From an uncultured Planctomycetales bacterium (GTDB lineage: Bacteria > Omnitrophota > Gorgyraeia > Zapsychrales > JANLHA01), in contig CAYYRJ010000009.1 of the NCBI GenBank assembly GCA_964474085.1, forward strand, positions 13,570 to 77,569: a stretch of DNA of 64,000 nt, in the 5' to 3' direction. Both the position numbers and the translations under genes were made by a program. Positions within the stretch are counted from its first letter, which is position 1, and each line of letters begins with the position of its first letter. Shown piece after piece: positions 1-15,419 of this stretch. The notes beneath the pieces were generated by a model that worked only from the letters and a program-made list of their open reading frames with translations, had not been told where the DNA came from and made no database searches.

Positions 1-144
1 AATGATCCGCTCAAACCCTTGTTGCTTTAAATACCGCAGAATTTTGTTTAAAAACGGCTCATCCCCGACGGTCGCCATTGTTTTTTGCGCCTGACCGATT
101 GTTGAACGCAGTCGTGTGCCCAAGCCACCACAAAGAATAACCAT
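1..144 (-). CDS. Sugar-1-phosphate nucleotidyltransferase, N-terminal fragment (HddC/ManC-like); gene continues past the window start
   Basis: My translation of the minus strand from ATG at 142-144 gives MVILCGGLGTRLRSTIGQAQKTMATVGDEPFLNKILRYLKQQGFERII, the G-x-G-T-R-L pyrophosphorylase loop. Not in the ORF track because it is under 60 aa inside the window. An alternative in-frame ATG at 163-165 lies inside the family-1 repeat. Confidence 0.5.
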   Translation of the reverse strand, partial: MVILCGGLGTRLRSTIGQAQKTMATVGDEPFLNKILRYLKQQGFERII

Positions 145-162
145 GTCCGTTTTTGACAAGTC

Positions 163-360
163 CATTTAACCCAAATTTTGCATTACAACCTAGCGCGCGA
201 CGATCCGTCGCGCACAAAAAGAAAAGTGCAAAATTTGCCTCCGGTTGTCCCACAGGGACAAGGTTAACCCCGCACGTCTCGACGTTGTCGAGACATGCGG
301 CCCTTTGGGCGGATTTTGCTTTGGCCAAGCAGGAGCTTGGCTAATGCAAAATCCGGGTTT
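163..360. repeat. Family-1 structured repeat, copy A (about 198 nt)
   Basis: About 89% identical to the reverse complement of 15462-15690. Carries hairpins gcgcgacg/cgtcgcgc, ttgtccc/gggacaa and cgcacgtctcgac/gtcgagacatgcg, a nested stem cggattttgc...gccaagc-agga-gcttggc...gcaaaatccg, and complementary 5' and 3' ends. Confidence 0.8.
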
Positions 361-1357
361 AAGAAACCAATCCTGTGTTAGGTTGATAAAAAATAATTTG
401 GCTGCCTAAAGTTTCAAATTTAAATGGGATTTCGAGCAGATTTTTAAGCCGCTGACGAATTTTAGGCTGCAGCTCTGGGGCCGCAAATATTAAAACAAAT
501 CCGCCGCCGCCGGCGCCCAAAAGTTTTCCGCCCAAAGCCCCCGCATCTTTTGCTGTATTATAAATCTCGTCGATATGAGGTGTTGAAATTTTCTCCGAAA
601 GACTACGCTTTAATTGCCACGACTCATCAAGCAACTTTCCAAAGTCCAGAATATCGCCGCTTTTAAGGACAGCGAGCGCGTGTGTTGTTAAACCATAAAT
701 TTCATTAAGCTCCTTAACCTTGCTGGGAGTATTTTTAATCTGATGCGCCGCAATCTCGGACGCCGTGCGCGAGAATCCGGTAAAAAACATCATCAAATGC
801 GACTGTAACTCTTTGAGTCTTTCTGACCCGACGGTAACAAGCCGTACCTGAAGATGATTCGGGCCCCCAAACTCAATAAAATTAAACCCTCCGTACGCGG
901 CCAAAGTCTGGTCTTGGCAGCCGACATTCTCTTTGATCAAATCTTGTTCAATATGAATCGCTTCACGGGCCAATTGTTCCTTCGTCGGCATAATTCCTTT
1001 AAGCGCGTAAAGGCCGTTTAAAAGCCCGACGGTAAAAGAAGAACTCGAGCCTAAACCTGTTCGCGCCGGCAAATCCCCGTCATGATGAATTTCAATGCCG
1101 TCGTGAATATTTAAAAATTTCAAGACTTCGCGCACTGAAGGATGATCAATATCTTCGACTTTCTGCACATGTTCGGTCACCGAATAAATAATACGCGATT
1201 TATGCTCAAAAAACGGAGGCAAATAGCGGCAGGTAATATAACAATATTTGTCAATCGTCGTCGCTAAAACAGCGCCTTTGTGTTCTTGATACCACGCCGG
1301 ATAATCCGTTCCGCCGCCAAAAAACGACACGCGAAAGGGTGTACGAGAAATGATCAT
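359..1357 (-). CDS. GHMP-family sugar kinase, probably D-glycero-D-manno-heptose 7-phosphate kinase (HddA-like)
   Basis: PARTGLGSSSS ATP-binding motif and C-terminal GGKLLGAGGGGF glycine loop typical of GHMP kinases. Sits next to the HddC-like fragment. Confidence 0.65.
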   Translation of the reverse strand: MIISRTPFRVSFFGGGTDYPAWYQEHKGAVLATTIDKYCYITCRYLPPFFEHKSRIIYSVTEHVQKVEDIDHPSVREVLKFLNIHDGIEIHHDGDLPARTGLGSSSSFTVGLLNGLYALKGIMPTKEQLAREAIHIEQDLIKENVGCQDQTLAAYGGFNFIEFGGPNHLQVRLVTVGSERLKELQSHLMMFFTGFSRTASEIAAHQIKNTPSKVKELNEIYGLTTHALAVLKSGDILDFGKLLDESWQLKRSLSEKISTPHIDEIYNTAKDAGALGGKLLGAGGGGFVLIFAAPELQPKIRQRLKNLLEIPFKFETLGSQIIFYQPNTGLVS

Positions 1358-2874
1358 ACAAGCACCTTGGGTTCTAAAATCTTTCGTTTGAGTTTGATTT
1401 TTGTCGAGCGCAGCGTTTCTTCAACAGCAAGGTCTCCAAATTTTTTTTCGAGCAAATTTAAAAACTGCGGCGAAGTATGATACTGCATCCAGGCTTTATC
1501 CCTAAATTCCAAAACTTGATCGGCTGTTAAATATTTGGTCGGTAAAGGCTGAGCATTATAAGAATGTTGCGAAAATCCCGAATACGAATCCGGCAATTTC
1601 CATCCCGCCTTGCGCGCCTGTCCGTGCAGAGGACTGCCCGGATAAGCCATCGCCGAATAAAAGTTCGCTTCTTCCGTATTCATTTCAAGAGCTAAATCAA
1701 GCGTCATTTGCATGCTGGGAATATCATCTTCGGGAAGACCAAAGATATAATTGGCAATGACGTTAATATCGTGCGCCCGGATTTTTTTGACGACATCGCG
1801 GATGTCGACGTCTTCAAAACGGCCCTTGGTCACATCTTTACGCACGCGCGTGTTTCCGCTTTCAATGCCTAACGCCAGCCAATTGACACCGGCTTTTTTT
1901 AAAATGTCCAGATACTGTTCCTTGACCGTATCTACCCGCGAATAGCACCAAATATTAAATTTGTACCCTCGCTCAATGATCAGCTCACAAAGCTTCACAA
2001 AATGATTCGCGTTAAGGACAAACAGCTCGTCGGCGATTTTGATATTGGTAATTCCTTCATCAGCAAAGAAATCAAACTGCTTAATAATAAATTCCGGGTC
2101 CCAATAGCGGAAAACAGCGCTGCCGTCGGAGAATTCATTCTCCTGACGATTAATGATATTAATCATACAAAAAGAACATTTCATCGGACACCCTAAACTC
2201 GTATAAAGCGCGACAAAAGGCTGGCGCTTGATATGATTCGAATAGGAATGCCATAATGATGTCCGATAACGTTTCAAGGGCAACCGGTCCCAGGCAATGC
2301 CCGGAAGATCGTGGGGCAAGTTTTCTTTCGGCACAATCGGCGAAGGCGGATTCAAAATAATTTGGCCATCGGCCCGATACCCTAACCCTAAAACTTTATC
2401 GAGATTATCCTCAAGGTTAGTGCGAAGCAAATTTGAAATCGTATAGACCCCTTCGTTCTGGCAAACAAAATCAATATAACTGTGCCGCTCAAGAACTTCC
2501 CGCGGCAAAGCGGCGATATGCCCGCCGACAAAAAGGATTTTTGTTTCGGGAAGGTGCTTCTTGACAAGATCCGCTAAAGCAATCGCACCATCCATATTTT
2601 GAGAGCTCGCCGAAGGCTGCTGACCGTAAACAACAAAGCACGTCACTTTCGGATTAAGATCAGAAATATATTGAGTTGATTCAGCGTCGGAAAAAGAAAG
2701 CGCTTCGCTGTCTAAAATCGCAGCGCGAAAACCTTCTTTTAAACAGTGTGACGTCAACATGCCAGCCCAAATCGGCGGCTCAATGGCCGAATACACTGTA
2801 CTTAAATCCTGATAAACTTTATACGACGCATTCGCTTGGACAAAAAGAATATCGAGCTGTTTAAATGTTGGCAT
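1354..2874 (-). CDS. Class B (cobalamin-binding) radical SAM enzyme
   Basis: N-terminal B12-binding-like domain followed by a CPMKCSFC (CxxxCxxC) radical SAM cluster motif. 506 aa. Embedded in the nucleotide-sugar operon. Confidence 0.7.
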   Translation of the reverse strand: MPTFKQLDILFVQANASYKVYQDLSTVYSAIEPPIWAGMLTSHCLKEGFRAAILDSEALSFSDAESTQYISDLNPKVTCFVVYGQQPSASSQNMDGAIALADLVKKHLPETKILFVGGHIAALPREVLERHSYIDFVCQNEGVYTISNLLRTNLEDNLDKVLGLGYRADGQIILNPPSPIVPKENLPHDLPGIAWDRLPLKRYRTSLWHSYSNHIKRQPFVALYTSLGCPMKCSFCMINIINRQENEFSDGSAVFRYWDPEFIIKQFDFFADEGITNIKIADELFVLNANHFVKLCELIIERGYKFNIWCYSRVDTVKEQYLDILKKAGVNWLALGIESGNTRVRKDVTKGRFEDVDIRDVVKKIRAHDINVIANYIFGLPEDDIPSMQMTLDLALEMNTEEANFYSAMAYPGSPLHGQARKAGWKLPDSYSGFSQHSYNAQPLPTKYLTADQVLEFRDKAWMQYHTSPQFLNLLEKKFGDLAVEETLRSTKIKLKRKILEPKVLV

Positions 2875-3793
2875 ATTGGTTCCTTTTAATGATCTGATAC
2901 GCTTTAACCAACTCTGTAATTCCCGCCGCTAATGATACCTCAGGCTTAAATCCGGTTTTTTCAATCTTGTCATTGCTGACAATATAATCGCGCTTATCCG
3001 GATCTTCACCGATGGTCGCCTCAACGAAATAAAAATCTTTGACCTGCTTTTGGATTTCTTGGCAAAGCCCAAGCTTGCTGATATTCGCATCACTTAATCC
3101 GACGTTGTAAGCCTGATTTTTCATCTTGTCAAAATTGTGAAGGCTATGGCTAAACGCTTTGGCCACGTCGCGCACATGAATAAAGTTGCGATTAAAATGC
3201 GCTTCAAACAAAACAACAAACCGGTCATACACGGCGCGATAGACAAAATCATTGACGAGCAAATCCAAACGCATCCGAGGCGAAACGCCGAAAGCCGTCG
3301 CCAAACGCAAAGTGATCCCGTTTCCGGCCGCAAGAATCGCTTGCTCAGCTTCGACCTTAAGCTTTCCGTAAAGCGAGATTGGCCTAAGCGGCGTTTCTTC
3401 GGTGCAATGCTTACCCTTTTCGCCGATGCCATAACCGCTGTTGGTCGTCGGAAAAATAACCATCTGATCTTTACTGCGCAATTGCAAAATCATGGTGACC
3501 GCATCCAACAAAATCGACTGCGCACCAACCGGGTCCTTGGCGCACAATGGCGCCCCTGTCAAGCACGCCAGCGGAAAAATCGCGTCGGCATCCTTGAGAA
3601 GCCTGGTCATCAAATTTTTGTCGCGCGTATCTCCTCGGACAATTGTCAATTTAGGATGATAACAGACGTCTAAAAGCGACGTTTGGTTATACATAAAATT
3701 ATCGAGCGCAACAACCTCATGGCCTTCTACCAAAAATCGCGGAATCATCACAGAACCCAAGTACCCGGCCGCGCCGGTAATTAAAATTTTCAT
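2861..3793 (-). CDS. NAD-dependent nucleoside-diphosphate-sugar epimerase/dehydratase (SDR family)
   Basis: ITGAAGYLGS Rossmann motif and YGKLK (YxxxK) catalytic motif. Confidence 0.75.
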   Translation of the reverse strand: MKILITGAAGYLGSVMIPRFLVEGHEVVALDNFMYNQTSLLDVCYHPKLTIVRGDTRDKNLMTRLLKDADAIFPLACLTGAPLCAKDPVGAQSILLDAVTMILQLRSKDQMVIFPTTNSGYGIGEKGKHCTEETPLRPISLYGKLKVEAEQAILAAGNGITLRLATAFGVSPRMRLDLLVNDFVYRAVYDRFVVLFEAHFNRNFIHVRDVAKAFSHSLHNFDKMKNQAYNVGLSDANISKLGLCQEIQKQVKDFYFVEATIGEDPDKRDYIVSNDKIEKTGFKPEVSLAAGITELVKAYQIIKRNQYANI

Positions 3794-3842
3794 AAAACAA
3801 TATCCTTTCTTAACATTCTTACTTTAATAATAATTTTATGGT

Positions 3843-3955
3843 TCGCTATAAGCCCTTCGGCTCAAAGGAACGGTCCCTGGTTGATGTCCCGCCTAACGGC
3901 GGGAGAAAATCAGGGCTGCGTTCAATTCGCCTTTAGGCTTATAGCAAACCAAGCA
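3843..3955. repeat. Family-4 structured repeat, copy a
   Basis: Conserved core cgaattgaacgcagccc.gattttctcccgccgttaggcggga..atc.acc.gggaccgttc..ttgagcc, shared with 63901-64000 in reverse complement. Closing stem gctataagcc/ggcttatagc is unique to this copy. Confidence 0.75.
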
Positions 3956-3972
3956 CCCCCAGATCACATCCA

Positions 3973-4878
3973 TTAAATCGTCCGGTTAATTCCTTCTTTT
4001 AATCCCACCTTCGGTTTCCAACCCAACGCTTTGATGCGGCTGCTGTCTAAAAGTTTTCGCATCGCTCCGTTGGGTTTAGAAGAATCAAAAACAATCTTTC
4101 CCTCATACTCAAGGGCAGAAGCAATCAATTTTGCCAAATCTTTTATCGCAATATCTTCGCCAACCCCGACATTGATCAACTCTTGGCTCTCGTAATTTTC
4201 CATCAAAAAAACACACGCACTCGCAAAATCTTCGCTAAACAAAAACTCGCGTTTAGGTTTTCCCGTTCCCCAAAGTGTTACGGACTTTTCATTCTTGGCG
4301 ACGGCCTGCGAAAATTTTCCTATCAGCGCGCCCAAAACATGGCTGTTTTCGGCATCCGTATCTGCCGCCGGCCCATAAAGGGTCGCCGGAACCATGGCAA
4401 TGGCGTTAAACCCGTATTGCCGGCGATACGCGCGGCACATTTCAACACCCGCAATTTTAGCGACCGCATAAGGCTGGCTCGTCGCCTCCAGAGCGCCGGT
4501 CAAAAAATATTCTTCTTTGATCGGTTGGGGAGAATTCTTCGGATAAACGCAGGAGCTGGCGATATACAGAAGTTTTTTTACTTTGGCTTTGTAAGCTGTG
4601 TGAATGATATTGTTTTGACTTTGCAGATTTGCGTAAATAAACTCCGCGCAAAATTCCTGATTGGCCTTAATCCCGCCGGAAAGCGTGGAAGCTAAAAAAA
4701 CATATTGCGGTTTAACTTTTTTAAAAAAACTTTCAACCTGCCGCTGATTAAAAACATCCCACTTCTCAGGCCCGGCGGAAATCACATTTTTAAAGCCTTG
4801 GCTGGTTAAATAATCATAAAGAGAATGTTCAACGATGTCGTTGTGTCCGACGATGAGAATACGCGATTGCTTTTTCAT
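3973..4878 (-). CDS. GDP-L-fucose synthase (Fcl/GMER)-like 3,5-epimerase/4-reductase, probable GDP-(deoxy)heptose reductase
   Basis: Aligns along its full length to Fcl (ASSCVYPK, YAVAK catalytic Ser/Tyr/Lys). The N-terminal dinucleotide loop is VGHNDIVEHSL instead of GHRGMVGSA. Confidence 0.65.
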   Translation of the reverse strand: MKKQSRILIVGHNDIVEHSLYDYLTSQGFKNVISAGPEKWDVFNQRQVESFFKKVKPQYVFLASTLSGGIKANQEFCAEFIYANLQSQNNIIHTAYKAKVKKLLYIASSCVYPKNSPQPIKEEYFLTGALEATSQPYAVAKIAGVEMCRAYRRQYGFNAIAMVPATLYGPAADTDAENSHVLGALIGKFSQAVAKNEKSVTLWGTGKPKREFLFSEDFASACVFLMENYESQELINVGVGEDIAIKDLAKLIASALEYEGKIVFDSSKPNGAMRKLLDSSRIKALGWKPKVGLKEGINRTI

Positions 4879-5411
4879 TTCAAATTATAATAATTCCCGT
4901 GCTCAATAAGCAGTGTCGAGCGGCCATCTTTTCGCTCAAAAGCATATTTATAGGCTGGAAAAATTTCTTCGGGCTCCTCCAGCTCGACAACTTCAATTGT
5001 TGAAAATAATTTTCGAAAAGCATCCGCGTAATTGCCGATATGTTGATGCCCCGGATGAACCGGCGCGTCAGGCCCGGTCGCCACACGAATAAGCGTCTTG
5101 GGCATCAGCGTCCCACCGCTAATCGCTGGAATTTTGTCGAGCATGTTCGTCATATCAGACGTCGCCAAGAGCAAAAAATTCTGGCGCGGATAAACACTGA
5201 TAGGAATATAGCCAGCTAACGCCATACCGATAGTAAACTGCATTTGAAAACTTTCATTAATCGGCATCTCAAGCGTGCGGTCCTTAGGACAATCGCGCAG
5301 CGTCTGGAACATAAACGTCCCCGGACCGGCAACCGTCTGCCCGACGAACATCGCCTTATCTTGTGTGGCCAACCATTCCATCGTCCGTTTTAATTCGTCG
5401 AAATATTTCAT
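4875..5411 (-). CDS. ThDP-dependent enzyme, Pyr-domain subunit (E1-beta / transketolase-C-like, minimal)
   Basis: Start corrected to internal ATG at 5409-5411 (MKYFDELK...), which has an upstream GAGG. Resembles the pyrimidine-binding domain of E1 beta / transketolase. Only 179 aa, with no C-terminal TK_C domain. Confidence 0.5.
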   Translation of the reverse strand: MKYFDELKRTMEWLATQDKAMFVGQTVAGPGTFMFQTLRDCPKDRTLEMPINESFQMQFTIGMALAGYIPISVYPRQNFLLLATSDMTNMLDKIPAISGGTLMPKTLIRVATGPDAPVHPGHQHIGNYADAFRKLFSTIEVVELEEPEEIFPAYKYAFERKDGRSTLLIEHGNYYNLK

Positions 5412-5421
5412 TTCAAAAACC

Positions 5422-6054
5422 TCAAAATTTGATAAGTTTCCCCAACCCCGAATGCGGATAGCCGTTGACGTATTTAAAATAAATAATTTTTGCTTCGTAT
5501 TTAGTGCCTTTAAACCACGGGTCTGGACTGCCCCAAACTTCACGGGTATTAGTCATCACGCTGACCCCATTATCGCAAACGATAAACTTGACCGGCAAAT
5601 CAAAGTTATAGGCATATTTAACCGCTTCGAAGAAAATGCCTGTTTCCGAGGACATTTCTCCGCAAAAAAGAAACGCACAGCCCTTTTTATTCTGGTTTTT
5701 AAGCGCCCAGGCGACTCCCGTGGCTGTTCCCATAAGACTGCCAACGATGCCGGAACACAAAACGTTATACTCCGGGAAACACAGCGAAATACTTTTTCCC
5801 TCGACAATCGCTTGCTTGACCATATCGCGCGGCACACCTTTAAGCAAAGCCAATTCATGCGAATCCCAAAAGCCAAACACATAATCGTCATCGCCAATAT
5901 TTTCTTCACGAAAAATCCGGATCAGCTCATCCTCGCGGCCAGCGCGCAAATGGACCGGAGCACGGATCGCACCGGTCGCAAAAATTTCAGCAATTTCCTG
6001 TTCAAATTTTATAATGTCGTCTTTGGTCAATTGTGTTTTCATGATGGGGGTCAT
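5422..6054 (-). CDS. ThDP-dependent enzyme, PP-domain subunit (E1-alpha / transketolase-N-like, minimal)
   Basis: ThDP-binding region GSLMGTATGVAWAL...CGEMSSETGIFFEA...FIVCDNGVSVMT resembles the E1-alpha GDG...N motif. 210 aa. Confidence 0.55.
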   Translation of the reverse strand: MTPIMKTQLTKDDIIKFEQEIAEIFATGAIRAPVHLRAGREDELIRIFREENIGDDDYVFGFWDSHELALLKGVPRDMVKQAIVEGKSISLCFPEYNVLCSGIVGSLMGTATGVAWALKNQNKKGCAFLFCGEMSSETGIFFEAVKYAYNFDLPVKFIVCDNGVSVMTNTREVWGSPDPWFKGTKYEAKIIYFKYVNGYPHSGLGKLIKF

Positions 6055-6084
6055 TATGAAATACCTTTAGATTTTTGGCAATGT

Positions 6085-7050
6085 TTATCCTGTTTTTCTT
6101 AATTTGCCGCTATAGCCTTCTGCTTTAAACCAATCGAGCGTTTCTTGCAAACCTTGCTCAATATCTACTTTCGGTTGCCAGTTCAAATATTTTTTAGCCA
6201 GCGTAATATCCGGACAACGTTGTTTGGGGTCATCCACCGGAAGCGGACGATAAATCAATTTACTTTTTGCTCCCGAAAGTTTTAGAATCAACTTTGCAAA
6301 TTCAAGAATCGTAAATTCCGCAGGGTTTCCGATATTGACCGGTTCATGGACATCGCTATACAATAATCTCACAATCCCGTCGATCAAATCCGAATAAAAA
6401 CAAAAGGACCGCGTTTGTTTTCCGCTGCCATAAATCGTCAGCGATTGATGATGCAATGCCTGATCAATAAAATTTGGGACAACCCGTCCGTCCTTAACCT
6501 GCATCCGCGGACCGTAAGTATTAAAAATACGAACAATGGCAGTATTGACTTTGTGGGTGCGATGATACGCCATGGTCATCGCTTCCGCAAAACGCTTGGC
6601 TTCATCATAAACCCCGCGCGGACCGATGGTGTTAACATGGCCCCAATACGTTTCTTTTTGCGGATGCTCCAGCGGATCACCATAAATTTCAGAAGTCGAT
6701 GCGACTAAAAAACGCGCCTTTTTTAATTTTGCCAATACCAAACAATTTTCTGTGCCATATGATCCTACCTGCATGGTAGGGATCGGATATTTTAAATAAT
6801 CGACAGGGCTTGCGGGAGACGCAAAGTGCAAAATATAGTCAACGTCTCCGGCAATGGCAAAAGGCCGGCTGACATCTTTTTTGATAAAATCAAAATCCCT
6901 GGTTTTCTTTAAATGCGCGATGTTGCGCAAACGGCCGGTGAGCAAATTATCGACGGCAATAACCTTGCATCCGTCGGCTAAAAGCCGATCGCACAGATGG
7001 CTCCCCAAAAATCCCGCCCCGCCCGTCACAACTGCTACCTTTTTCTTCAT
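6085..7050 (-). CDS. UDP-glucuronate decarboxylase (UDP-xylose synthase)
   Basis: [16 protein letters not shown]...DNLLTGR...KKDV is typical of UXS/ArnA-decarboxylase-like SDRs. Lies immediately downstream of ugd. Confidence 0.8.
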
Positions 7051-7064
7051 AAAAAACCCTTCTA

Positions 7065-7100
7065 AACTCCCCCTCCCCCCTCTTTAGATAAAGAGGGGGA
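7065..7100 (-). terminator. GC-rich hairpin between the dehydrogenase and UXS genes (possible intra-operon attenuator or processing site)
   Basis: Perfect 10-bp stem cccccctcttt/aaagaggggg with a 5-nt loop. The T-run on the minus strand lies about 20 nt further 3', so it is not a textbook intrinsic terminator. Confidence 0.3.
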
Positions 7101-7118
7101 TTAAGGGGGCATTTGAAA

Positions 7119-8438
7119 TCAAAGTTTAATAATTTTCTTACTCTTCACACCATCAAAGACATTGCGCGTATCGAAAATCATTTTTGCCGACTTTAAAATC
7201 AGCTTGTAATTCACGTCGCTGTGATCTGTGGCGATCACAACACAATCAAACCCGGCGATATCCTTTGCTGTCAAAACAATTGACGCCAAATCGATCGTCC
7301 CAATTTTAAGATACGGAATAATCGGGTCAAAATACGAAACCCTAACCCCCTGAGCCTTAAAAAGTTCAATTAACCGAAGCGGCGGAGATTTGCGCAAGTC
7401 CTTCACATCTTTTTTATACGTCACCCCGACGACAAGAATCTTAGAATAAGCGAATTCTTTCTTTTGCTTTTCCAAAAGCTCTTTGATCCGCCCCAGCGCA
7501 TAAGAGGGCATATACGAATTGGTATCCGCCGAAAGCCGGATGTACTTGGAATTAAACCCATACTTCTTAGCTTTCCAATGCAAGTACAGAGGATCGTCGG
7601 GAATACAATGGCCACCGACGCCTAAGCCGGGATAAAAAGGCATAAACCCAAACGGTTTTGTTTTAGCTGCCGCAATGACTTCCCAAATGTCAATATGGAG
7701 CTTATGGCACATCATCGCCAGCTCATTGATCCAGCCGATATTAACAATGCGAAAAGAGTTTTCCAATAACTTGGTCATCTCAGCCGCGTCGGCAGATGAG
7801 ACCAAATGGACTTCTTTAATAATCGTCTGGTACAAAAATTTCGTCAGCTCTCCGCTTTTTTCGTCAATGCCGCCGACGATCTTCGGAATTTGTGTGACGC
7901 TGTATTTTTTGTTGCCCGGATCAATACGTTCCGGAGAAAACGATAAAAACAAATTCTTGCCAACAACAAGACCCGACTTTTCTAAAACCGGTTTGACCAA
8001 CTCGCGTGTGGTTCCCGGATAGGTCGTGCTTTCTAAAATAACGAGCGTATCTTTCTTGATATACTGGCCAACGGTTTTGACGGCATTGACAATAAAAGAA
8101 ACATCCGGCGTATATTTACGACGCAGCGGGGTTGGGACACAAATGATAATCACGTCCGCCATCTTTAAATGCGAAAAGTCGCTCGAGGCTGTCAATCGCC
8201 CATTATCAACAACGCGAACCAGATCCGCCGGTGCGATGTCGGCAATATAATTTTTCTTTGTCTTAACGCGCAGGACACGATCCGTGTCCATGTCAAGGCC
8301 AAAAACCTTAAAACCCGCCTTGGCAAAACTCACCGCCAAAGGCAAACCCACATAGCCAAGACCTAAAACAGCGACGAGTGCTTTTTTATTTAGGATTTTT
8401 TCGCTCAAAACTTTTGACATTCGTTTATCCTCTTTCAC
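7119..8438 (-). CDS. Nucleotide-sugar dehydrogenase, UDP-GlcNAc/ManNAc 6-dehydrogenase family (WecC/WbpA/TviB-like)
   Basis: VLGLGYVGLPLA N-terminal NAD fold and GLGVGGHCIP active-site Cys motif. Confidence 0.75.
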   Translation of the reverse strand: MKEDKRMSKVLSEKILNKKALVAVLGLGYVGLPLAVSFAKAGFKVFGLDMDTDRVLRVKTKKNYIADIAPADLVRVVDNGRLTASSDFSHLKMADVIIICVPTPLRRKYTPDVSFIVNAVKTVGQYIKKDTLVILESTTYPGTTRELVKPVLEKSGLVVGKNLFLSFSPERIDPGNKKYSVTQIPKIVGGIDEKSGELTKFLYQTIIKEVHLVSSADAAEMTKLLENSFRIVNIGWINELAMMCHKLHIDIWEVIAAAKTKPFGFMPFYPGLGVGGHCIPDDPLYLHWKAKKYGFNSKYIRLSADTNSYMPSYALGRIKELLEKQKKEFAYSKILVVGVTYKKDVKDLRKSPPLRLIELFKAQGVRVSYFDPIIPYLKIGTIDLASIVLTAKDIAGFDCVVIATDHSDVNYKLILKSAKMIFDTRNVFDGVKSKKIIKL

Positions 8439-9758
8439 CTAAACTGCGCCGCGGCCGATACCAAAATATTCAAATCCCAAATCAACCAAATTGTCATTTT
8501 TATATAAATTGCGTCCATCAAAAATCATCGGCTGGCGCATCAAGTTTTTCAGACGTTTAAAATCGACCTGACGAAACTCTTCCCATTCCGTTAAAACAAC
8601 CAAACAATCAACACCCTTAGCCGTGGCATAAACATCCTTGCAAAAACTGATGTCTTTAAAAATCTTTTTTGCATTCTCGATAGCCTGTGGATCATAGGCC
8701 TTTATCTTGGCCCCTTCAGCCTGCAGGCGCGCAAGGATATCCACCGATGGAGCATTGCGCATATCATCTGTGTTAGGTTTAAAAGCCAACCCCAAAACAC
8801 CAATTGTTTTGCCTTTGATGATCCACAATTTATCTTCAATCAAGCGCACAAAAGCAGCCTTTTGTTCTTCATTCGTCGTGCGGACTGCTTTTAAAAGATT
8901 AAAGTCATATCCGCTTTTTTCGCTCAAACGGATAAACGCATCAACATCTTTGGGAAAACAGCTGCCGCCAAAACCAATTCCGGCATTAAGAAAACTAGCT
9001 CCAATCCTCTTGTCATACCCCATCCCTTCGGTCACTTTAAGAATATCGGCACCGACCTTGTCACAAATCTGGGACAAAGCATTTGCAAAAGAAATCTTCG
9101 TCGCTAAAAAAGAATTGGACGCATGCTTGATGATTTCGGCAGAGGTGATGTTGGTCACAACAATACGCGTCTTAAGCGGTTTATAAATTTCTTTCAAAAG
9201 CTCTTCAGCTTTTTTGGACTCGACCCCAATGACCACGCGATCCGGGTTCATAAAATCTGCAATCGCCGAACCTTCGCGCAAAAATTCCGGGTTGGAAGCC
9301 ACATCAAAAGAAAATTTGTGTCCACGCTGCTTAAATTGTTTTGGCAAATTCATTTCGATCGTATGCTCAATGCGCTTGCCGGTTTCCGCCGGGACAGTAG
9401 ACTTTTCAACGATCAGTTTATACGAGTCCATGCTGACCGCAATCTGACGGGCGACATTCTCGACATAAGTCAAATCCGCATCCCCGTTTTTTTTCGACGG
9501 CGTTCCAACAGCAATAAAAATCACCTGCGAACGCTTTGTCGCATCTTTGATTGTTGGGCAGAAAAAAAGTTTTTTCTTTTTTATCTGCTTGGTCATCAGC
9601 TCCTGAAGACCCGGCTCGTAAATTGTGGCAATCCCTTTTCGCAATTTTCTTAATTTTTCAAGATCATTGTCAACACAATAAACGGTGTGTCCAATCGCCG
9701 AAAGACATACGCCTGTGACTAACCCAACATACCCTGTCCCGACAATCCCGATATTCAT
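8439..9758 (-). CDS. ugd: UDP-glucose 6-dehydrogenase
   Basis: MNIGIVGTGYVGLVTG..., GFGGSCFPKD catalytic Cys motif, 439 aa. Confidence 0.85.
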   Translation of the reverse strand: MNIGIVGTGYVGLVTGVCLSAIGHTVYCVDNDLEKLRKLRKGIATIYEPGLQELMTKQIKKKKLFFCPTIKDATKRSQVIFIAVGTPSKKNGDADLTYVENVARQIAVSMDSYKLIVEKSTVPAETGKRIEHTIEMNLPKQFKQRGHKFSFDVASNPEFLREGSAIADFMNPDRVVIGVESKKAEELLKEIYKPLKTRIVVTNITSAEIIKHASNSFLATKISFANALSQICDKVGADILKVTEGMGYDKRIGASFLNAGIGFGGSCFPKDVDAFIRLSEKSGYDFNLLKAVRTTNEEQKAAFVRLIEDKLWIIKGKTIGVLGLAFKPNTDDMRNAPSVDILARLQAEGAKIKAYDPQAIENAKKIFKDISFCKDVYATAKGVDCLVVLTEWEEFRQVDFKRLKNLMRQPMIFDGRNLYKNDNLVDLGFEYFGIGRGAV

Positions 9759-9785: not shown

Positions 9786-11891
9786 TTATCGCAACCCTGT
9801 CCCGGCTTTGACGCGGTTAAACCCTGAATTAAAATCAATGGCGACATCCGGAAATTCTTTAAGCGTAAAAACAAGCCAGATCGCATCTCCCTCAGTGGCC
9901 TTGTGATTAAAACTTAACTTCATATCCCATTCGTGAAGATCCCGAACAATCGCATACTGCTGCTCCTTATTGTGTCCGCGGTCTTCATCCCAACGCTGAT
10001 AAATTTCGAAATACCACTTTTGATTAATCCGGTAATTTAATTGACTGGTAATCTGATCATCCACCGCACGGTCAAAACGCTTGCCAAAGCTCAAAGACCA
10101 TTTATTCCCGGGATCATTAAAATAAATATCAAAATTCGAAGAACTGATGTGGTCTTTAATTGTGTCATAATTCGTCTCCGCATAAAACGTCACCCATTTA
10201 TTAGGCTTCAAATCCGTCTTAGTCGTCACATTATTAAAGCCGCCTTTGCGCCTATCTTCCTTAAGATAAAAATCCGACGAGACTAACACCCGCGCAAGAT
10301 CAGCGCTTTTGCCGTTGCGCTTTGTCTGCAGCTTGTTTTCAAAGCCAAACGTCATCCCATGACTGCGCGTTAAACTGTCGATGGCATCAAATTGCACCAG
10401 CTTGGAGGATTCAATGCTCGGGTCGTGCGTATAAAAATAAGCCACCGACGGAGTAATCACATGGCGCAAACGATTAATGTCCAAATTCAAGAAATTCGTT
10501 TTTACATCATACACGCGGAAAAATTTTGTGCTGACATTCGCGCCGGTCTTAAAAATCCCGCGCACCGTATTGTTGTCCGTTTTATCAAGCGTCTTTGAAT
10601 AAAACGTTTGCTCTCCGCCGACAAAAGGACGAATCTCAAAGAATTTAATTTTAAACGGATACGAAATCTCATTGTCCGTGTCAAAACGCATTGTTTCATA
10701 ACGATGCGCACTGGGAACAGGCTCAAGTTTGGCAAGATTTGAATAAGTCGTATTATTTTTCCAATAAAAACCGCTCTCCAAAATTTTGCGGCCCGGCAAA
10801 AGATAATTGATTTCCGGCAAACGGTCAATAGCCGACGTAAAACGATTCACACGAACATCAGCTCGCAAACTCATTGTTCCGGCTTTCGAAAAACCACGCG
10901 TCAGAAGAAAATACGTCGGCGGGTTCGTGTCCTGATCATACTCTCTTTTAAAAAAATCTTTTAAAAATTCAGCATCGCTGATTTTGTAATACTGCCAAAT
11001 AGCATGCGTGGATTTGTCAATGTTCCATTTATTGCGCCACTCGCCCTTAAAACGTTCCTTCTCGATGATCGGAGTGCCGTTCTCCTTGTTAAAATCAAAA
11101 AAGAACTTCCTGTCACTCAAACGTTCTTGGGTATAATAAATTTTCATAAACCCGTTTCCAAACCGCGTGTCATTATAGTTAAAATCCGCGCCTTCCCCAA
11201 AACCTCGTCGACTGCGATTGTCAAGATGCAAAACGGTGTTCACATGATCGTTCCAGTAATGGCGCCATTTCGTAAGCACAAAAGCGCCCCAATCCTTCGA
11301 ATACCCCGGCGTAATAATAAACATCGGCTCTTTGTGTTTTAAGTCCTGCGTATAGCGCGGCAGAAAAAAAACCGGGACTTTTCCAAAGACGATTGACAAG
11401 TTGCGCGCGGTCGCTTTGTCGCCCTGAAAAATATCGACCTTCCGCGAACGCAGCTTAAAATGCGGATGGTCCAAATCGCACGTCGTGATATATCCGTCTT
11501 TAAGAATAATATGATTTTCGCCTTCTTTCGAAATTTGTCGGCCGGCGCCATAAAAAGGGTCTGAGGTGACATGTGCCTGGACAAAATCACCTTTCATCGT
11601 CGCAAAATTATAAATCAATTTTTCGCCGGTTAACCGTGAACCATCGCGCAAAAGAACAACATGCCCCTGAGCTATCCCAATATTTTGCGAGCGGTCAAAT
11701 TCCAAAGAGTCACACGACAGCGTCACGCCATCCCGCTTGACAACGACATTGCCGGTTGCGGTTACTTTTGTGTCGGTGACAGAATACTGCATCTGGTCCC
11801 CATTGATTTCGACAGGGGTTGCTTGCTCTTGGGCAAAGCCTGGCATCACAAAGACGAGGGAAAAATAAAAAATTAAAAAAATACGTTTCAT
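9786..11891 (-). CDS. lptD: LPS-assembly outer-membrane protein LptD (OstA family)
   Basis: Signal peptide, N-terminal OstA-like domain (GNVVVKRDGVTLSCDSLEFD...GHVVLLRDGSRLTGEKLIYN) and a long C-terminal beta-barrel-like region. 701 aa. Confidence 0.7.
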   Translation of the reverse strand: MKRIFLIFYFSLVFVMPGFAQEQATPVEINGDQMQYSVTDTKVTATGNVVVKRDGVTLSCDSLEFDRSQNIGIAQGHVVLLRDGSRLTGEKLIYNFATMKGDFVQAHVTSDPFYGAGRQISKEGENHIILKDGYITTCDLDHPHFKLRSRKVDIFQGDKATARNLSIVFGKVPVFFLPRYTQDLKHKEPMFIITPGYSKDWGAFVLTKWRHYWNDHVNTVLHLDNRSRRGFGEGADFNYNDTRFGNGFMKIYYTQERLSDRKFFFDFNKENGTPIIEKERFKGEWRNKWNIDKSTHAIWQYYKISDAEFLKDFFKREYDQDTNPPTYFLLTRGFSKAGTMSLRADVRVNRFTSAIDRLPEINYLLPGRKILESGFYWKNNTTYSNLAKLEPVPSAHRYETMRFDTDNEISYPFKIKFFEIRPFVGGEQTFYSKTLDKTDNNTVRGIFKTGANVSTKFFRVYDVKTNFLNLDINRLRHVITPSVAYFYTHDPSIESSKLVQFDAIDSLTRSHGMTFGFENKLQTKRNGKSADLARVLVSSDFYLKEDRRKGGFNNVTTKTDLKPNKWVTFYAETNYDTIKDHISSSNFDIYFNDPGNKWSLSFGKRFDRAVDDQITSQLNYRINQKWYFEIYQRWDEDRGHNKEQQYAIVRDLHEWDMKLSFNHKATEGDAIWLVFTLKEFPDVAIDFNSGFNRVKAGTGLR

Positions 11892-12823
11892 CTGTTTTTT
11901 TCTACGCCTTGACTTAACAAAACCTGCGCACCGATAATGCCTGCATCATCCCCGAGTTTGGCGCAAACGATTTTGACCATCTTCGCCTGCACTTTCATCG
12001 CCCGTTTTTGTATGACCGCATTGATCGTCGAAAAAAGAAACCGGCGATTATTTGAAACCCCGCCGCCGATAATAATCAAAGGCGGATTCAACAAATTCAC
12101 AACTCCCACCAAACCATTGCCGATATGCGTCGCTGTTTCTTCAAAAAACTTGAGCGCCCTTTTATCTTTCTTCAGAGCCAAAGCATAAACGTCCGGGATC
12201 GTTAAAGTTTTATCGCCAAAAATTGCCGCGATTTTTTCTAAAAGTGGACCATTGCCCACGTAACGTTCAAAACATCCATACCCGCCGCAATTGCAGGAGG
12301 GCCCCTCTTCATTAATCGGCATATGCCCAATTTCGCCGGCCACAAACCCTTCTCCCCGATACATTTTACCGCCTAAAATAAGTCCGCCGCCGACTCCCGT
12401 CCCTAAAGTCATACACAAAAGATCATTTTTTCCGATCCCCGCGCCAAACTTCCATTCGCCTAACGTAATCATGTTGACATCATTTTCCAGAACTGTCGGC
12501 TTATGAAATTCTTTTTCAAAAATTTTGCGCAAATAAATATTTTTCCATCCCGGGACATTCGGCAAAAAAATAACAAGGCCTTTGAAAGGATCGACCGCCC
12601 CGGGAAGGCCGATGCCAATGCCCGAAATTTGAGAGTAAGTTATTTGAGCGTCTTTGAGTAATGTATGGATATAAGTGAAGATGGCCGAAATAAGCTGCTG
12701 TGGATTACGATTGTAAGGCTTTGTGGGCATGACACTTCGCGCTAAAATCTTGCCTCTGGCATCAACGATACCAAGCTTAACGTTTGTTCCGCCAACATCG
12801 ATGCCTAAACTTAAATTTTTCAT
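11888..12823 (-). CDS. ROK-family sugar kinase (glucokinase / N-acetylglucosamine kinase-like)
   Basis: LGIDVGGTNVKLGIV N-terminus and the CNCGGYGCFERY zinc motif of ROK kinases. Confidence 0.75.
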   Translation of the reverse strand: MKNLSLGIDVGGTNVKLGIVDARGKILARSVMPTKPYNRNPQQLISAIFTYIHTLLKDAQITYSQISGIGIGLPGAVDPFKGLVIFLPNVPGWKNIYLRKIFEKEFHKPTVLENDVNMITLGEWKFGAGIGKNDLLCMTLGTGVGGGLILGGKMYRGEGFVAGEIGHMPINEEGPSCNCGGYGCFERYVGNGPLLEKIAAIFGDKTLTIPDVYALALKKDKRALKFFEETATHIGNGLVGVVNLLNPPLIIIGGGVSNNRRFLFSTINAVIQKRAMKVQAKMVKIVCAKLGDDAGIIGAQVLLSQGVEKNR

Positions 12824-12936: not shown

Positions 12937-13060
12937 AGAGCGGCCCTTTGGGCCCTACGGTTTTGCGTAGGCCAAGCAGAAGCTTGGCTAATGCAAAATC
13001 CGGGTTGATTCTAACCTAAACGACAGGGGCTTTCAAGCTGATTAACCCGGATTTTGCATT
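12937..13060. repeat. Partial family-1 copy (3' module) with its own closing inverted repeat
   Basis: gcggccctttgggc...ggccaagcagaagcttggctaatgcaaaatccgggtt matches the 3' third of family 1. It is followed by aacccggattttgcatta, the exact complement of taatgcaaaatccgggtt. Confidence 0.7.
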
Positions 13061-13094
13061 AAAAAATGAAATACAAAATTTGGGATTAAAGCGA

Positions 13095-14111
13095 TTATTT
13101 GCCATAAACCCCAAAAGCACAAACCCGGTTGCGCCCGCCCTTTTTGGCGCGATACAAAGCCCAATCCGCTTTATCGATAAGTTCATTGACTTTTTTGCCG
13201 TCCTGCGGATAAACCGCAATCCCGATGCTGACGGTTGCCTTAGTCGACGTGTCAAATGCTTTGATCGTTGCCTGTTCAACGGCGAAACGGATACGCTCTG
13301 CAACACTCCCTGCAGAGACAAAATCCGTATCCGGCAACACAACGCAAAATTCCTCTCCGCCAAAGCGGCCGATAATATCAATTTCACGAATATTCGCTTT
13401 AATGATGGAAGCGATTTCCCGCAAAATCTGATCTCCCGTCAAATGCCCGTACTGATCATTAAAATGTTTAAAAAAATCAACGTCCACCATCAAAAACGCC
13501 ATGTGCGTCTTGTAAATCTGCGCTCGATTGCGCTCCTCTTCAAAGCGTTCGAGGACATACCGACGAGTATGAACCTCCGTCAAACTGTCGGTGATCGCAA
13601 GCCGTTCAATGTCTTGATAAAGCCGCACACGCCGAAGCGCCAAAGCAAATTGATTGGCCAAAATCACAACTTTTTCCTGTTGGCTTTCAGCCACATCACT
13701 TAAAGCCAAAACTCCAAGCTTGCGTCGCTGACCGCTCAAAGTCAGAAGCAGATACCCTCCCAGTTCTTTGTCCTTAATTTGCTCTTGCGCCAGCGGGTCG
13801 AGCAAGAGGCAATCGCCAAAATGCACACTTTCTCGGAGCTTGACTTTAAAGGCATAAAAAGTTTTTTCTTCCGAAAAACTTTTGGTCATCTCGCGCGTCA
13901 GATCATAAAGCGTAAAAATTTCTGCAACTTCGGTTTCCAAAACTTTTCGCCGCTCATCCAAACCTTTTTTGATCCGCAACAATTCTTCATGCTGGCTCTT
14001 AAAAAGCACAAGAGCATCCGTTTCTCGCCGTAAGATGTTTGCAATCGCCCAGCGCACGACAAAAATCACCACGGCTGTAAAAACAAAAAGTAAACTCACC
14101 ATAAAAATCAT
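13095..14111 (-). CDS. Diguanylate cyclase (GGDEF domain) with N-terminal TM and coiled-coil region
   Basis: RFGGEEFCVVLPDT GG(D/E)EF active-site motif and RYVLERFEEE upstream motifs. Confidence 0.8.
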   Translation of the reverse strand: MIFMVSLLFVFTAVVIFVVRWAIANILRRETDALVLFKSQHEELLRIKKGLDERRKVLETEVAEIFTLYDLTREMTKSFSEEKTFYAFKVKLRESVHFGDCLLLDPLAQEQIKDKELGGYLLLTLSGQRRKLGVLALSDVAESQQEKVVILANQFALALRRVRLYQDIERLAITDSLTEVHTRRYVLERFEEERNRAQIYKTHMAFLMVDVDFFKHFNDQYGHLTGDQILREIASIIKANIREIDIIGRFGGEEFCVVLPDTDFVSAGSVAERIRFAVEQATIKAFDTSTKATVSIGIAVYPQDGKKVNELIDKADWALYRAKKGGRNRVCAFGVYGK

Positions 14112-14117
14112 TTTATT

Positions 14118-15419
14118 CTATGCCTCTTTGGCAAAAACAACCTGATTGCGGCCGGATGCCTTGGCCTCATAAAGCGCCGCGTCCGCTTTCTGGACAAGAT
14201 CTTCTTTGGTATGCGCATCAACGGGGAAAGACGCAACTCCCAGAGAAACCGTAATGTTCGTTTTTTCGCGGCGCAAAATAATCGTTTGTGCCGCAATTCG
14301 TTTGCGGACCTCTTCAGCCAATTGGCCAGCTCTTCGCTTGGAACAATCCGGCAAAAGCACGCAAAACTCTTCCCCGCCATAACGGCAAACAATTTCTCCC
14401 GGCGCGCTAAACATATCCAAAAGAATAAGCGCAATGGTCTTAAGGACAATGTCCCCGGCGGTATGCCCAAAGCGATCATTGTATTTTTTAAAATAATCCA
14501 AATCGATCATCAGAAAAGACAACTGGCTTTCACTTCGCAAATGCCGGCTGATTTCAGCGTTTAACCGCTCAAGCAAATGCCGGCGCAAATACAAACCCGT
14601 CAAACTATCGCGGATCGCCAAATCCTCAACACGTTCATAAAGCTGCGCATTTTCTAAAGCGACCGCGCCAATGGCCCCGACCGTATTTAAAAAACGCAAA
14701 TCTTCCGTCGAAAAATGATGCTCGCTGTTACTATCGACCCGCAGCAATCCTACCGTCATTTCTCCGACGGACAATGGGACACTCATCAGGGAACGCACGT
14801 CCCGATGGTCCTGCGTTTGGACCTGCTGGGCATCAAAACGAAAATCGGTCTTTGTGTCTTCGATAAAAAGCGGTTTTAAGTTTTTGACCACCCATTGATC
14901 ATAGCTATCGCCTCTTTTGGCCTTGAGATTTAACGGCTCTTGATTGCGCAAGGACGCACCGATAGCCAGCTGGCGGTTGTTATTATTAAAAAAATAGACA
15001 ATAACCGTCATCTGCGGGTGTTTATAAACGCCATTAACTTCACTGGCAATCATTTGAGCGGTATCCGCAAGCGTAAAAGAGGCGCAGAGTTTTTCGGTCA
15101 GATTTTTTAGCAAGGCATAATTCGTAATCTTAATTTGCAAAGCATTATTAGCTTGCCGTTTCTGGACAATGTCCGCCTGCAAAAGATTAAGCCGCTCTTC
15201 GCATTCGCCGCGCTCTAAAGCAACAAGCATTTGACGGTTTGACAGAGAAATATACGAATAGACAAGATACCCGACGATAATCGATAAAGAAAATGCCAGA
15301 AAAATAAAAAACCGGGAGGCAAAATACCCTGCATAAAAAAAGAATCCAACGAGCGAAAACAACAACAGAATTATAAAAAAATGGGGTGATTGAGCGATTC
15401 GGCAAATTAATTTTTTCAT
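14118..15419 (-). CDS. Membrane-anchored GAF-GGDEF diguanylate cyclase
   Basis: Two N-terminal TM helices, a GAF-like middle region, and the RYGGEEFCVLLPDC GGDEF motif. Confidence 0.8.
   Translation of the reverse strand: MKKLICRIAQSPHFFIILLLFSLVGFFFYAGYFASRFFIFLAFSLSIIVGYLVYSYISLSNRQMLVALERGECEERLNLLQADIVQKRQANNALQIKITNYALLKNLTEKLCASFTLADTAQMIASEVNGVYKHPQMTVIVYFFNNNNRQLAIGASLRNQEPLNLKAKRGDSYDQWVVKNLKPLFIEDTKTDFRFDAQQVQTQDHRDVRSLMSVPLSVGEMTVGLLRVDSNSEHHFSTEDLRFLNTVGAIGAVALENAQLYERVEDLAIRDSLTGLYLRRHLLERLNAEISRHLRSESQLSFLMIDLDYFKKYNDRFGHTAGDIVLKTIALILLDMFSAPGEIVCRYGGEEFCVLLPDCSKRRAGQLAEEVRKRIAAQTIILRREKTNITVSLGVASFPVDAHTKEDLVQKADAALYEAKASGRNQVVFAKEA

Follow-up and report, generated by a model that had tools for sequence, protein, structure and literature searches.

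A conserved lptD-linked operon of Omnitrophota with a B12-type radical SAM enzyme and a miniature ThDP enzyme beside predicted GDP-heptose genes

Which sugar is made by a block of genes that adjoins lptD and sets relatives of the GDP-heptose enzymes beside a radical S-adenosylmethionine (SAM) enzyme and a thiamine diphosphate (ThDP) enzyme? The block lies at the left end of a 64,000-nt stretch of contig CAYYRJ010000009.1, here called the window, to which all coordinates refer unless another locus is named; all operon genes are on the minus strand. The genome is labelled as an uncultured Planctomycetales bacterium and is placed by GTDB in the Omnitrophota, a large uncultured phylum with very small cells. 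To our knowledge, nothing is known of the envelope chemistry of this phylum, and literature searches returned no paper on Omnitrophota lipopolysaccharide (LPS). An earlier note on this DNA had proposed a modified heptose pathway, joined with a UDP-xylose pathway to the lptD operon, and its gene order, with 11 complete minus-strand open reading frames and a truncated twelfth, was correct. The block is a conserved two-arm envelope-glycan operon of Omnitrophota. One arm, consisting of Ugd, a second NDP-sugar dehydrogenase and UXS, leads to UDP-glucuronate and UDP-xylose. The other arm, of eight genes, would build and tailor a GDP-linked heptose. In its upstream half, known GDP-heptose enzymes are combined in a new way; the coupling of a radical SAM and a ThDP enzyme to a pair of the Cj1427 and ColD types has no described counterpart in the literature searched. 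Seven of the eight genes begin in the window and are listed here in the direction of transcription; the eighth, for a DegT-family protein, lies just past the window edge.

5422-6054, minus strand: 210-aa alpha subunit of the miniature ThDP enzyme, limited to the PP domain; E1_dh 45 bits
4875-5411, minus strand: 178-aa beta subunit of the miniature ThDP enzyme, limited to the Pyr domain; Transket_pyr 23.5 bits (cut-off 27)
3973-4878, minus strand: Fcl/GMER-like epimerase-reductase; NF047922 GDP-L-fucose synthase 373 bits, cut-off 500
2861-3793, minus strand: Cj1427-like extended short-chain dehydrogenase/reductase (SDR), predicted GDP-heptose C4-dehydrogenase, 310 aa; PDB 6vo6/6vo8 386 bits
1354-2874, minus strand: B12-binding-domain radical SAM enzyme; Pfam B12-binding 41.7 bits, Radical_SAM 62 bits
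359-1357, minus strand: HddA-like GHMP sugar kinase; Pfam GHMP_kinases_N and GHMP_kinases_C, best NCBIfam match HddA
1-165, minus strand: HddC-like sugar-1-phosphate nucleotidyltransferase, N-terminal 55 aa, cut by the window edge; full length of 244 aa read from L001

Proteins were assigned by searches against Pfam, NCBIfam and the sequences of the PDB, and scores in bits were compared with the curated cut-offs. At this level the family calls of the earlier note held for each protein, several of them with scores below the family cut-offs. The operon is truncated by the left window end, and the sequence beyond it was read from contig L001, whose GHMP kinase is identical to that of the window, and from L004, whose radical SAM protein is 92% identical. 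Relatives were drawn from three sources. A scan of one genome per species, with a radical SAM alignment of 11 closer sequences, gave 489 stretches with a radical SAM relative, and the best 80 were fetched; nearly all of these are metagenome-assembled genomes of Omnitrophota, many mislabelled ‘Planctomycetales’. A scan of IMG/VR gave at least 314 viral contigs with a radical SAM relative, from which 80 loci (L098-L177) were fetched. Remote radical SAM homologues (32–58% identity) were found among 1.84 billion cluster representatives, and eight of their contexts were examined.

The strongest clue to a heptose, which was unavailable to the earlier reader, comes from the SDR. Judged by its sequence, it is a C4-dehydrogenase of the Cj1427 type. 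It matches PDB entries 6vo6/6vo8 with 385.7 bits and 57% identity over residues 2–309 (308 aa), and the next-best PDB match scores 73 bits. We take 6VO6 to be Cj1427 of Campylobacter jejuni (Huddleston et al., Biochemistry 2020); the PDB names it only as a ‘putative sugar-nucleotide epimerase/dehydratase’, and a full-text search for the code gave no confirmation. The gmd model (TIGR01472) did not match the 310-aa protein, 6vo6 being its only strong match, and neither SDR of the cassette is a GDP-sugar 4,6-dehydratase of the Gmd type. Because the SDR is of the C4-dehydrogenase type and not a 4,6-dehydratase, the analogy with GDP-6-deoxy-heptose synthesis that the earlier note had drawn fails, and the chemistry points to 6-hydroxy (D-glycero) heptoses rather than to 6-deoxy-heptoses.

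The next step would be the removal of the 3-hydroxyl group. In L001 and L004, the DegT-family protein just past the window edge carries a histidine at the position of the Schiff-base lysine (‘SLYAAHIITTIEGG’ versus ‘FFGNKIITTGEGG’ of perosamine synthetase). Replacement of this lysine by histidine is a hallmark of the ColD- and E1-type 3-dehydratases. The histidine is present in all 66 genome or metagenome loci with a readable motif, including a 27%-identical version in L065/L066, and in 47 of 47 readable viral copies. The protein, hereafter DegT(His), scores 220 bits against perosamine synthase and 177 bits against ColD. With 391 aa its length is ColD-like (E1 has 437 aa), and a gene for an E3-type reductase was not seen in the cassette. 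The signature marks it as a putative ColD/E1-type 3-dehydratase and puts 3-deoxygenation forward as the main tailoring reaction, the one that the sequence supports. The corresponding C. jejuni enzymes, Cj1427 and the HS:5 C3-dehydratase, form GDP-D-glycero-3-deoxy-4-keto-heptose in vitro when mixed across serotypes (Raushel laboratory, PMC10680097, where the product is reported at m/z 616.08); the Omnitrophota locus, in contrast, encodes both together.

The C. jejuni capsular GDP-heptose pathways (HddA/GmhB/HddC, Cj1427, the HS:5 C3-dehydratase and Cj1428/DdahC/MlghC) are the source of the best homologues for the kinase, the transferase, the SDR and the Fcl-like reductase. The Fcl-like protein scores 267 bits with C. 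jejuni DdahC (7anh, a heptose C4-reductase) and 253 bits with E. coli GMER, near-equal values that are consistent with a heptose pathway, and the motifs SSC, YxxAK and NSH, which correspond to Ser107/Cys109, Tyr136/Lys140 and His179 of GMER, are found in at least 97% of 55 sequences. The Omnitrophota cassette differs from the C. jejuni system in having no cupin C3/C5 epimerase, with the GMER epimerase residues kept by the Fcl-like enzyme, in adding the radical SAM and ThDP enzymes, and in being a conserved core locus by lptD rather than a variable capsule locus. GDP-colitose synthesis (ColD, ColC) likewise pairs a His-for-Lys PLP enzyme with an epimerase/reductase of the Fcl family, the substrate being a GDP-4-keto sugar; in Omnitrophota, however, the sugar is probably a heptose and its 4-keto group would come from a dehydrogenase, not from Gmd.

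The radical SAM enzyme has an invariant CxxxCxxC motif (C229/C233/C236) and an N-terminal B12-binding domain (Pfam cut-off 32.1) ahead of the radical SAM core. This is the domain architecture of the class B enzymes HpnJ, BchE, TokK, TsrM, CysS and MgmA, and a cobalamin type is predicted from it. The protein nevertheless forms a family of its own, of about 550 clusters at 50% identity (E <= 1e-30), and scores far below every curated family cut-off, the best NCBIfam models being HpnJ with 142 bits (cut-off 578) and BchE with 109 bits. Its only PDB sequence matches are AprD4 (63.5 bits, 19% identity), MgmA (9ccb) and TokK. An AlphaFold2 (AF2) model (pLDDT 93.9) has AprD4 as its best PDB fold, with TM-scores of 0.68/0.75, followed by MgmA, TsrM, TokK and OxsB. 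AprD4 and AprD3 carry out the C3'-deoxygenation of apramycin, AprD4 being a radical 1,2-diol dehydratase that acts on a sugar together with a reductase; the AprD4 substrate is an aminoglycoside, whereas that of the Omnitrophota enzyme would be a nucleotide sugar. Candidate reactions, chosen by analogy, are C-methylation, which is typical of class B, an AprD4-like radical dehydration of the C6–C7 diol, and C–C bond formation of the HpnJ or BchE kind.

Several relatives of the radical SAM protein (P0124, P0126, P0131 and P0133 near residues 233–236, P0137 near residue 338) reach 650–940 aa through a large insertion. The insertion of P0126 lies within the CxxxCxxC motif, starts with Cys and ends with ‘SHN’, which a Cys follows, and has the look of an intein whose middle part resembles a homing endonuclease.

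The ThDP enzyme is split into two short subunits. In alpha, E1_dh (cut-off 22) matches at profile positions 8–185 of 300, the pyruvate dehydrogenase E1 alpha model TIGR03182 scores 61 bits, and the G-x-M-S...DNG motif is conserved. Beta most likely starts with the ATG at 5411 rather than with the GTG at 5543; the subunit has no Transketolase_C domain and matches pyruvate dehydrogenase E1 beta weakly, and 59 sequences share a conserved ‘PxNES’ motif whose Glu is the putative activator of the cofactor. Matches are to E1_dh and Transket_pyr only, and the YerE arrangement of TPP_enzyme_N, M and C in one polypeptide was not found. None of the curated NCBIfam thresholds is reached by the radical SAM or ThDP proteins.

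For the function of such an enzyme, the best analogy is the ThDP-dependent branching of a 3-deoxy-4-keto sugar, in line with the likeness to yersiniose chemistry seen earlier. ThDP branching enzymes naturally use 3-deoxy-4-keto sugar nucleotides as acceptors, and C4-branched sugars arise through YerE and ErwE (PMC9306805). Pairs resembling the E1 alpha and beta subunits of pyruvate dehydrogenase branch sugars in paulomycin and avilamycin biosynthesis (PMC4802897). As in Omnitrophota, the ThDP genes of these systems (YerE/YerF for yersiniose, ErwE for erwiniose, Plm8/Plm9 for paulomycose, AviB1/AviB2 for eurekanate) stand beside genes for a 3-deoxy-4-keto sugar, and the two-subunit form of Plm8/9 and AviB1/B2 is a precedent for the Omnitrophota pair (PMC4802897). 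The differences are that the Omnitrophota subunits are miniature and not of the YerE (acetolactate-synthase) type, that the known systems use CDP or dTDP whereas the nucleotide in Omnitrophota is probably GDP, and that the known systems have no radical SAM enzyme whereas the miniature ThDP enzyme is always paired with one of the B12 type. PMC10680097 and our literature searches agree with the earlier claim that neither enzyme belongs to a described heptose pathway; no paper tying radical SAM or ThDP enzymes to heptose pathways was retrieved.

This pairing is conserved far beyond the window. Most of the 80 species-level loci keep the order ROK-lptD-ugd-dehydrogenase-UXS-ThDP alpha/beta-Fcl-like-Cj1427-like-radical SAM-GHMP kinase-nucleotidyltransferase-DegT(His). 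Presence was scored by tblastn with all operon proteins, the denominator being the loci with flanking sequence sufficient for the gene concerned, and median identities across the 80 loci refer to the window or L004 proteins. The Cj1427-like SDR, next to the radical SAM gene, was present in 67 of 71 assessable loci (median identity 80%), the GHMP kinase in 67 of 70 (73%), the nucleotidyltransferase in 59 of 62 (47%) and DegT(His) in 57 of 59 (70%). ThDP beta was found in 57 of 63 loci and ThDP alpha in 53 of 59 (79% for alpha and beta), and the Fcl-like gene in 52 of 64 (57%). Median identity of the radical SAM protein is 75%; in databases it has more than 100 cluster representatives at 73–96% identity, and the named ones are all Omnitrophota or Omnitrophica. 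In L065/L066, metagenome-assembled genomes labelled Elusimicrobia, a 73%-identical radical SAM gene is oriented towards an operon that encodes full-length E1 alpha and beta subunits, in the role of the miniature pair, together with DegT(His), Fcl-like and transferase proteins, a Cj1427-like SDR (62% identical) and a GHMP kinase (60%).

Around the remote radical SAM homologues a ThDP enzyme lies within a few genes in seven of the eight contexts, and an extended SDR is always nearby. The ThDP enzyme itself varies: it is a mini-E1 in L090, a full or near-full E1 alpha/beta in L088 and L095, a split transketolase in L093 and L097, and a whole transketolase in L092. In 78 of the 80 viral loci ThDP PP and Pyr genes stand beside the radical SAM gene, usually directly downstream; DegT was found in 50 of these loci, the Cj1427-like SDR in 47 and the GHMP kinase in 43, and the viral radical SAM proteins are 43–48% identical to that of the window. 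One contig, L134 (module L134:9995-15714), is a T4-like myovirus with portal, protease, scaffold, gp23-like capsid, helicase and gp46/47-like nuclease genes, and its capsid protein is 65% identical to that of cyanophage P-TIM40. The radical SAM gene was not found in GenBank phages, the viral relatives being carried by IMG/VR contigs. Because the ThDP component has been replaced non-orthologously while the association persists, these contexts are strong evidence that the radical SAM enzyme, the ThDP enzyme and the Cj1427-like SDR act in one shared pathway.

A gene for an L-2-hydroxyglutarate-oxidase-like FAD enzyme lies directly upstream of the Cj1427-like SDR gene in one remote locus (L090:7973-9064; 273 bits, cut-off 299), and a similar gene adjoins it in five viral loci (L111, L112, L118, L124 and L141). 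Cj1427, whose reaction is described in PMC10680097, forms L-2-hydroxyglutarate from 2-oxoglutarate as a by-product, so that the FAD enzyme could recycle the co-substrate of the SDR. The placement is consistent with a heptose pathway and gives one indirect hint that the SDR may use 2-oxoglutarate in ping-pong fashion with tightly bound NADH.

We propose the following scheme, from GDP-heptose through the 4-keto and 3-deoxy-4-keto sugars to a product with a ThDP-derived two-carbon branch and a radical modification, and give it an even chance of being right as a whole. GDP-heptose would be made first. The Cj1427-like SDR would oxidize C4, its bound NADH probably being recycled by 2-oxoglutarate, and the ColD-type PLP enzyme would eliminate the 3-hydroxyl to give GDP-3-deoxy-4-keto-heptose. 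The miniature E1-like heterodimer could then attach an acyl unit of two carbons, with pyruvate as the probable donor, at the 4-keto group, as for yersiniose, paulomycose and eurekanate. The Fcl-like enzyme would epimerize and/or reduce, at the ring ketone or at a side-chain ketone, and the radical SAM enzyme would modify that same intermediate once more, by C-methylation, by radical dehydration of the C6–C7 diol or by C–C bond formation. The GT4, GT2 and GT9 glycosyltransferases encoded downstream in the relatives would attach the sugars to an acceptor, either lipid-linked or of the lipid A-core type, that LptD exports. Gene content, homologies, the active-site histidine, synteny and co-occurrence are observed; all substrates, the sequence of the steps and the parts played by the ThDP and radical SAM enzymes are inferred. 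A bolder version, which we hold tentatively and think more apt to be wrong than right, is that the radical SAM enzyme and the ThDP enzyme make up a two-enzyme tailoring unit, not recognised before, for GDP-3-deoxy-4-keto-heptose; its product would be a new kind of sugar, C–C extended, branched-and-methylated or carbocyclic, and a conserved constituent of the inner envelope (LPS core) of Omnitrophota, and uncultured T4-like phages would make the same sugar nucleotide. If so, the phages may use it for remodelling of the host surface or for glycosylation of virion or DNA.

Several observations weigh against the scheme. The reaction of the radical SAM enzyme is not fixed, its best profile matches being HpnJ and BchE and its best fold AprD4. 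The miniature ThDP subunits match weakly, with beta below the Pfam cut-off and PDB scores of about 27 bits. The Fcl-like enzyme keeps all of the GMER epimerase and reductase residues, which fits reduction of a 4-keto group better than a C4-branched substrate, so C4 branching and Fcl action may serve alternative products; its gene is also missing from 12 of 64 assessable loci. Co-transcription is deduced from gene spacing only. On the heptose side, the kinase reaches 138 bits with HddA against a cut-off of 600 and the transferase 165 bits with HddC against a cut-off of 300; a GmhB-like gene lies downstream in only 16 of 44 assessable loci; gmhA was found neither anywhere in the 64-kb window nor, in the 80 genome loci, at a distance of up to 10 kb from the radical SAM gene; and gmhA, GmhB and HddC-like genes all went undetected in the 80 viral loci. 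The gmhA search was made by tblastn of the window and L001-L087 with an approximate E. coli GmhA query and with a GmhA-like protein from L089.

One unlikely alternative gives the radical SAM enzyme the task of preparing a carbonyl group for chain extension. An AprD4-like dehydration would convert the C6–C7 diol into a 6-deoxy-7-aldehyde or a 7-deoxy-6-ketone, to which the ThDP enzyme would ligate a C2 unit, giving a C9 3-deoxy sugar that might become carbocyclic after further C–C closure. AprD4 is the best PDB match by sequence as well as by fold, and the persistent proximity of the radical SAM and ThDP genes in viral and remote loci fits a maker and a user of a carbonyl group. The ThDP partner is sometimes of the transketolase type, which normally attacks aldehydes, and the diol would be available, since the Cj1427 route retains the 6-hydroxyl. 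However, identity to AprD4 is just 19%, and the class B methylases MgmA, TsrM, TokK and CysS follow closely in the fold ranking. The B12-binding domain scores above its Pfam cut-off, whereas AprD4 is not known to use cobalamin, and a sugar pathway of this kind has never been described. Caryose, a 4,8-cyclo-3,9-dideoxy-nonose, is a speculative analogue of the product. Erwiniose and caryophyllose were considered as direct analogues and dropped, because their synthesis is already explained without a radical SAM enzyme, by YerE-type enzymes with longer keto-acid donors (PMC9306805).

A somewhat less probable alternative dispenses with the heptose: mannose or another hexose would be activated and converted, in a colitose-like manner, to a GDP-3-deoxy or 3,6-dideoxy hexose derivative. 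The negative gmhA searches of the window and of the genome and viral loci, and the HddA and HddC scores well under their cut-offs, speak for it, as do the nearest relatives of DegT(His), GDP-perosamine synthase and ColD, and of the Fcl-like enzyme, GMER, all of which belong to GDP-mannose-derived chemistry. The full-length nucleotidyltransferase from L001 is almost as close to mannose-1-phosphate guanylyltransferase (154.6 bits) as to HddC, its best NCBIfam model (NF049965, 165.4 bits); its best PDB match is Yersinia HddC (5xhw/6jq8, 149 bits). The similarity of the kinase to HddA/WcbL, on the other hand, is about double that to any hexose or fucose kinase. HddA (NF049969) is the best NCBIfam model for the kinase with 137.9 bits, against 93 for fucokinase, and PDB entries 3k85, 4usk and 4n3o, of the HddA/WcbL type, score about 116–126 bits against 67 for fucokinase. 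Kinase and transferase are thus nearest to HddA and HddC, as the earlier note had it, and not to fucokinase or RmlA; we call the kinase HddA-like rather than an HddA orthologue. Further against a hexose are the full-length 57% identity of the SDR to the 6vo6 protein and the lack of a Gmd-type 4,6-dehydratase in the cassette. Heptose-related genes also occur in the neighbourhood: the GmhB-like phosphatase downstream in L004 is a 212-aa HAD protein that passes TIGR01656 and scores 155 bits with PRK08942 (cut-off 178), the GT9 downstream in relatives scores 117 bits with heptosyltransferase II, and in the remote locus L089 a GmhA-like gene is directly upstream of the SDR-radical SAM pair. On balance GDP-heptose is the probable, though far from certain, substrate of the pathway, probable and not proven because gmhA was found neither in the window nor near the radical SAM gene.

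That the radical SAM and ThDP enzymes are merely co-located and belong to some other process, for instance the metabolism of cofactors or lipids, would agree with the curated cut-offs that neither reaches and with the hopanoid (HpnJ) and bacteriochlorophyll (BchE) enzymes among the best profile matches of the former, but we consider it very improbable, given that the radical SAM gene overlaps the SDR gene by 14 nt and the kinase gene by 4 nt and that the link with the Cj1427-like SDR, the ColD-type DegT and the GHMP kinase persists in Omnitrophota, other bacteria and T4-like phage contigs, even with a non-orthologous type of ThDP enzyme.

There is a realistic chance that the locus encodes new chemistry. 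A radical SAM-ThDP pairing on a nucleotide sugar has no characterised precedent, and its recurrence in distant bacteria and hundreds of phage contigs makes a widespread, unexplored carbohydrate chemistry probable. The unexplained steps are directly testable in vitro, because the upstream steps have studied Campylobacter counterparts and the substrates are enzymatically accessible.

The remaining features of the block are ordinary enzymes of the UDP-xylose arm, LptD, a sugar kinase and two intergenic repeat elements:

11888-12823, minus strand: ROK-family sugar kinase, whose gene opens the co-directional block; ROK_glcA_fam 216 bits, cut-off 260
9786-11891, minus strand: LptD-like outer-membrane LPS-assembly protein; Pfam LptD 46.9 bits (cut-off 22.4), LptD_N 26.5 bits (cut-off 20.4)
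8439-9758, minus strand: Ugd, UDP-glucose 6-dehydrogenase; TuaD 550 bits, TIGR03026 472 bits
7119-8438, minus strand: second NDP-sugar 6-dehydrogenase, WecC/TviB-like; TIGR03026 421 bits, above cut-off
6085-7050, minus strand: UXS, UDP-glucuronate decarboxylase; human UXS1 (PDB 2b69/4gll) 344 bits over residues 4-311
3794-3972, no strand assigned: intergenic repeat element, ‘family-4’; a 64-nt partial copy, 94% identical, at 63915-63977
166-358, no strand assigned: intergenic repeat element, ‘family-1’; a 90% identical inverted copy at 15491-15680

The score of UXS with human UXS1 and the position of the ugd gene two genes upstream uphold the route from UDP-glucuronate to UDP-xylose proposed before. 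The second dehydrogenase scores below the cut-offs of the UDP-ManNAc dehydrogenase models. In the LptD-like protein an N-terminal signal-like sequence is visible, and the NCBIfam equivalog cut-offs are not reached. Intergenic gaps range from –14 to 68 nt, with two exceptions of 179 and 193 nt, each filled by one of the repeat elements, and the stop of the ROK gene overlaps the lptD start by 4 nt. A scan for promoters and terminators gave no clear operon boundaries, terminators not being above chance (17 found, 18.5 expected).

UXS was present in 47 of 55 assessable loci, the second dehydrogenase in 37 of 48, Ugd in 33 of 45, GT9 in 36 of 47 and LptD in 24 of 39 (median identity 48%). The linkage to lptD on which the earlier note had relied is therefore widely conserved without being universal: in L006 and L038 the eight-gene cassette stands behind a carbamoyltransferase gene instead of lptD. 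The order from lptD to the cassette is kept where LptD is only 38–50% identical and the cassette enzymes are still 70–80% identical. A sugar pathway better conserved than LptD is quite unlike a variable O-antigen island and suggests a core part of the envelope. The lptD neighbourhood and a conservation above that of LptD imply that the sugar is important for the outer membrane throughout the phylum. The earlier note had termed the locus an island; a horizontally acquired island was rejected, given a uniform G+C content (0.445 within the block versus 0.448 in the rest of the window) and phylum-wide synteny; the locus is a conserved core locus of the phylum.

Beyond the window edge, L001 and L004 continue with the full 244-aa nucleotidyltransferase, the DegT-family protein and the GT4, GT2 and GT9 glycosyltransferases; a second DegT aminotransferase, the GmhB-like HAD phosphatase and a glycosyltransferase resembling monogalactosyldiacylglycerol (MGDG) synthase are also encoded downstream. 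The second DegT aminotransferase (L004:17543-18661) retains its catalytic lysine and adjoins the GT9 gene (L004:16441-17517) in many loci. With Ugd and UXS it could form an amino-pentose branch resembling that of 4-amino-4-deoxy-L-arabinose (Ara4N).

Within the 68-nt gap between the genes for the second dehydrogenase and UXS (7051-7118), which ends in a T run, lies a G/C-rich inverted repeat that reads CCCCCTCTTTA..TAAAGAGGGGG along the minus strand. It is missing from the list of the generic terminator scan and might serve as an internal terminator or attenuator of low strength. Two consecutive GGDEF diguanylate cyclase genes (13095-15419) immediately precede the operon in the same direction, at a distance of 271 nt. 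In L004, the ThDP alpha and beta genes are separated by an inserted NTP_transf_2 gene and an IS110-family transposase gene (L004:5589-7081).

The 193-nt family-1 element between the kinase and transferase genes has further partial copies at 12961-13005 and 13045-13061, in the gap between the GGDEF genes and the operon. Because the same gap in the relative L004 measures only 29 nt and has no such element, we read the copy at 166-358 as a recent insertion.

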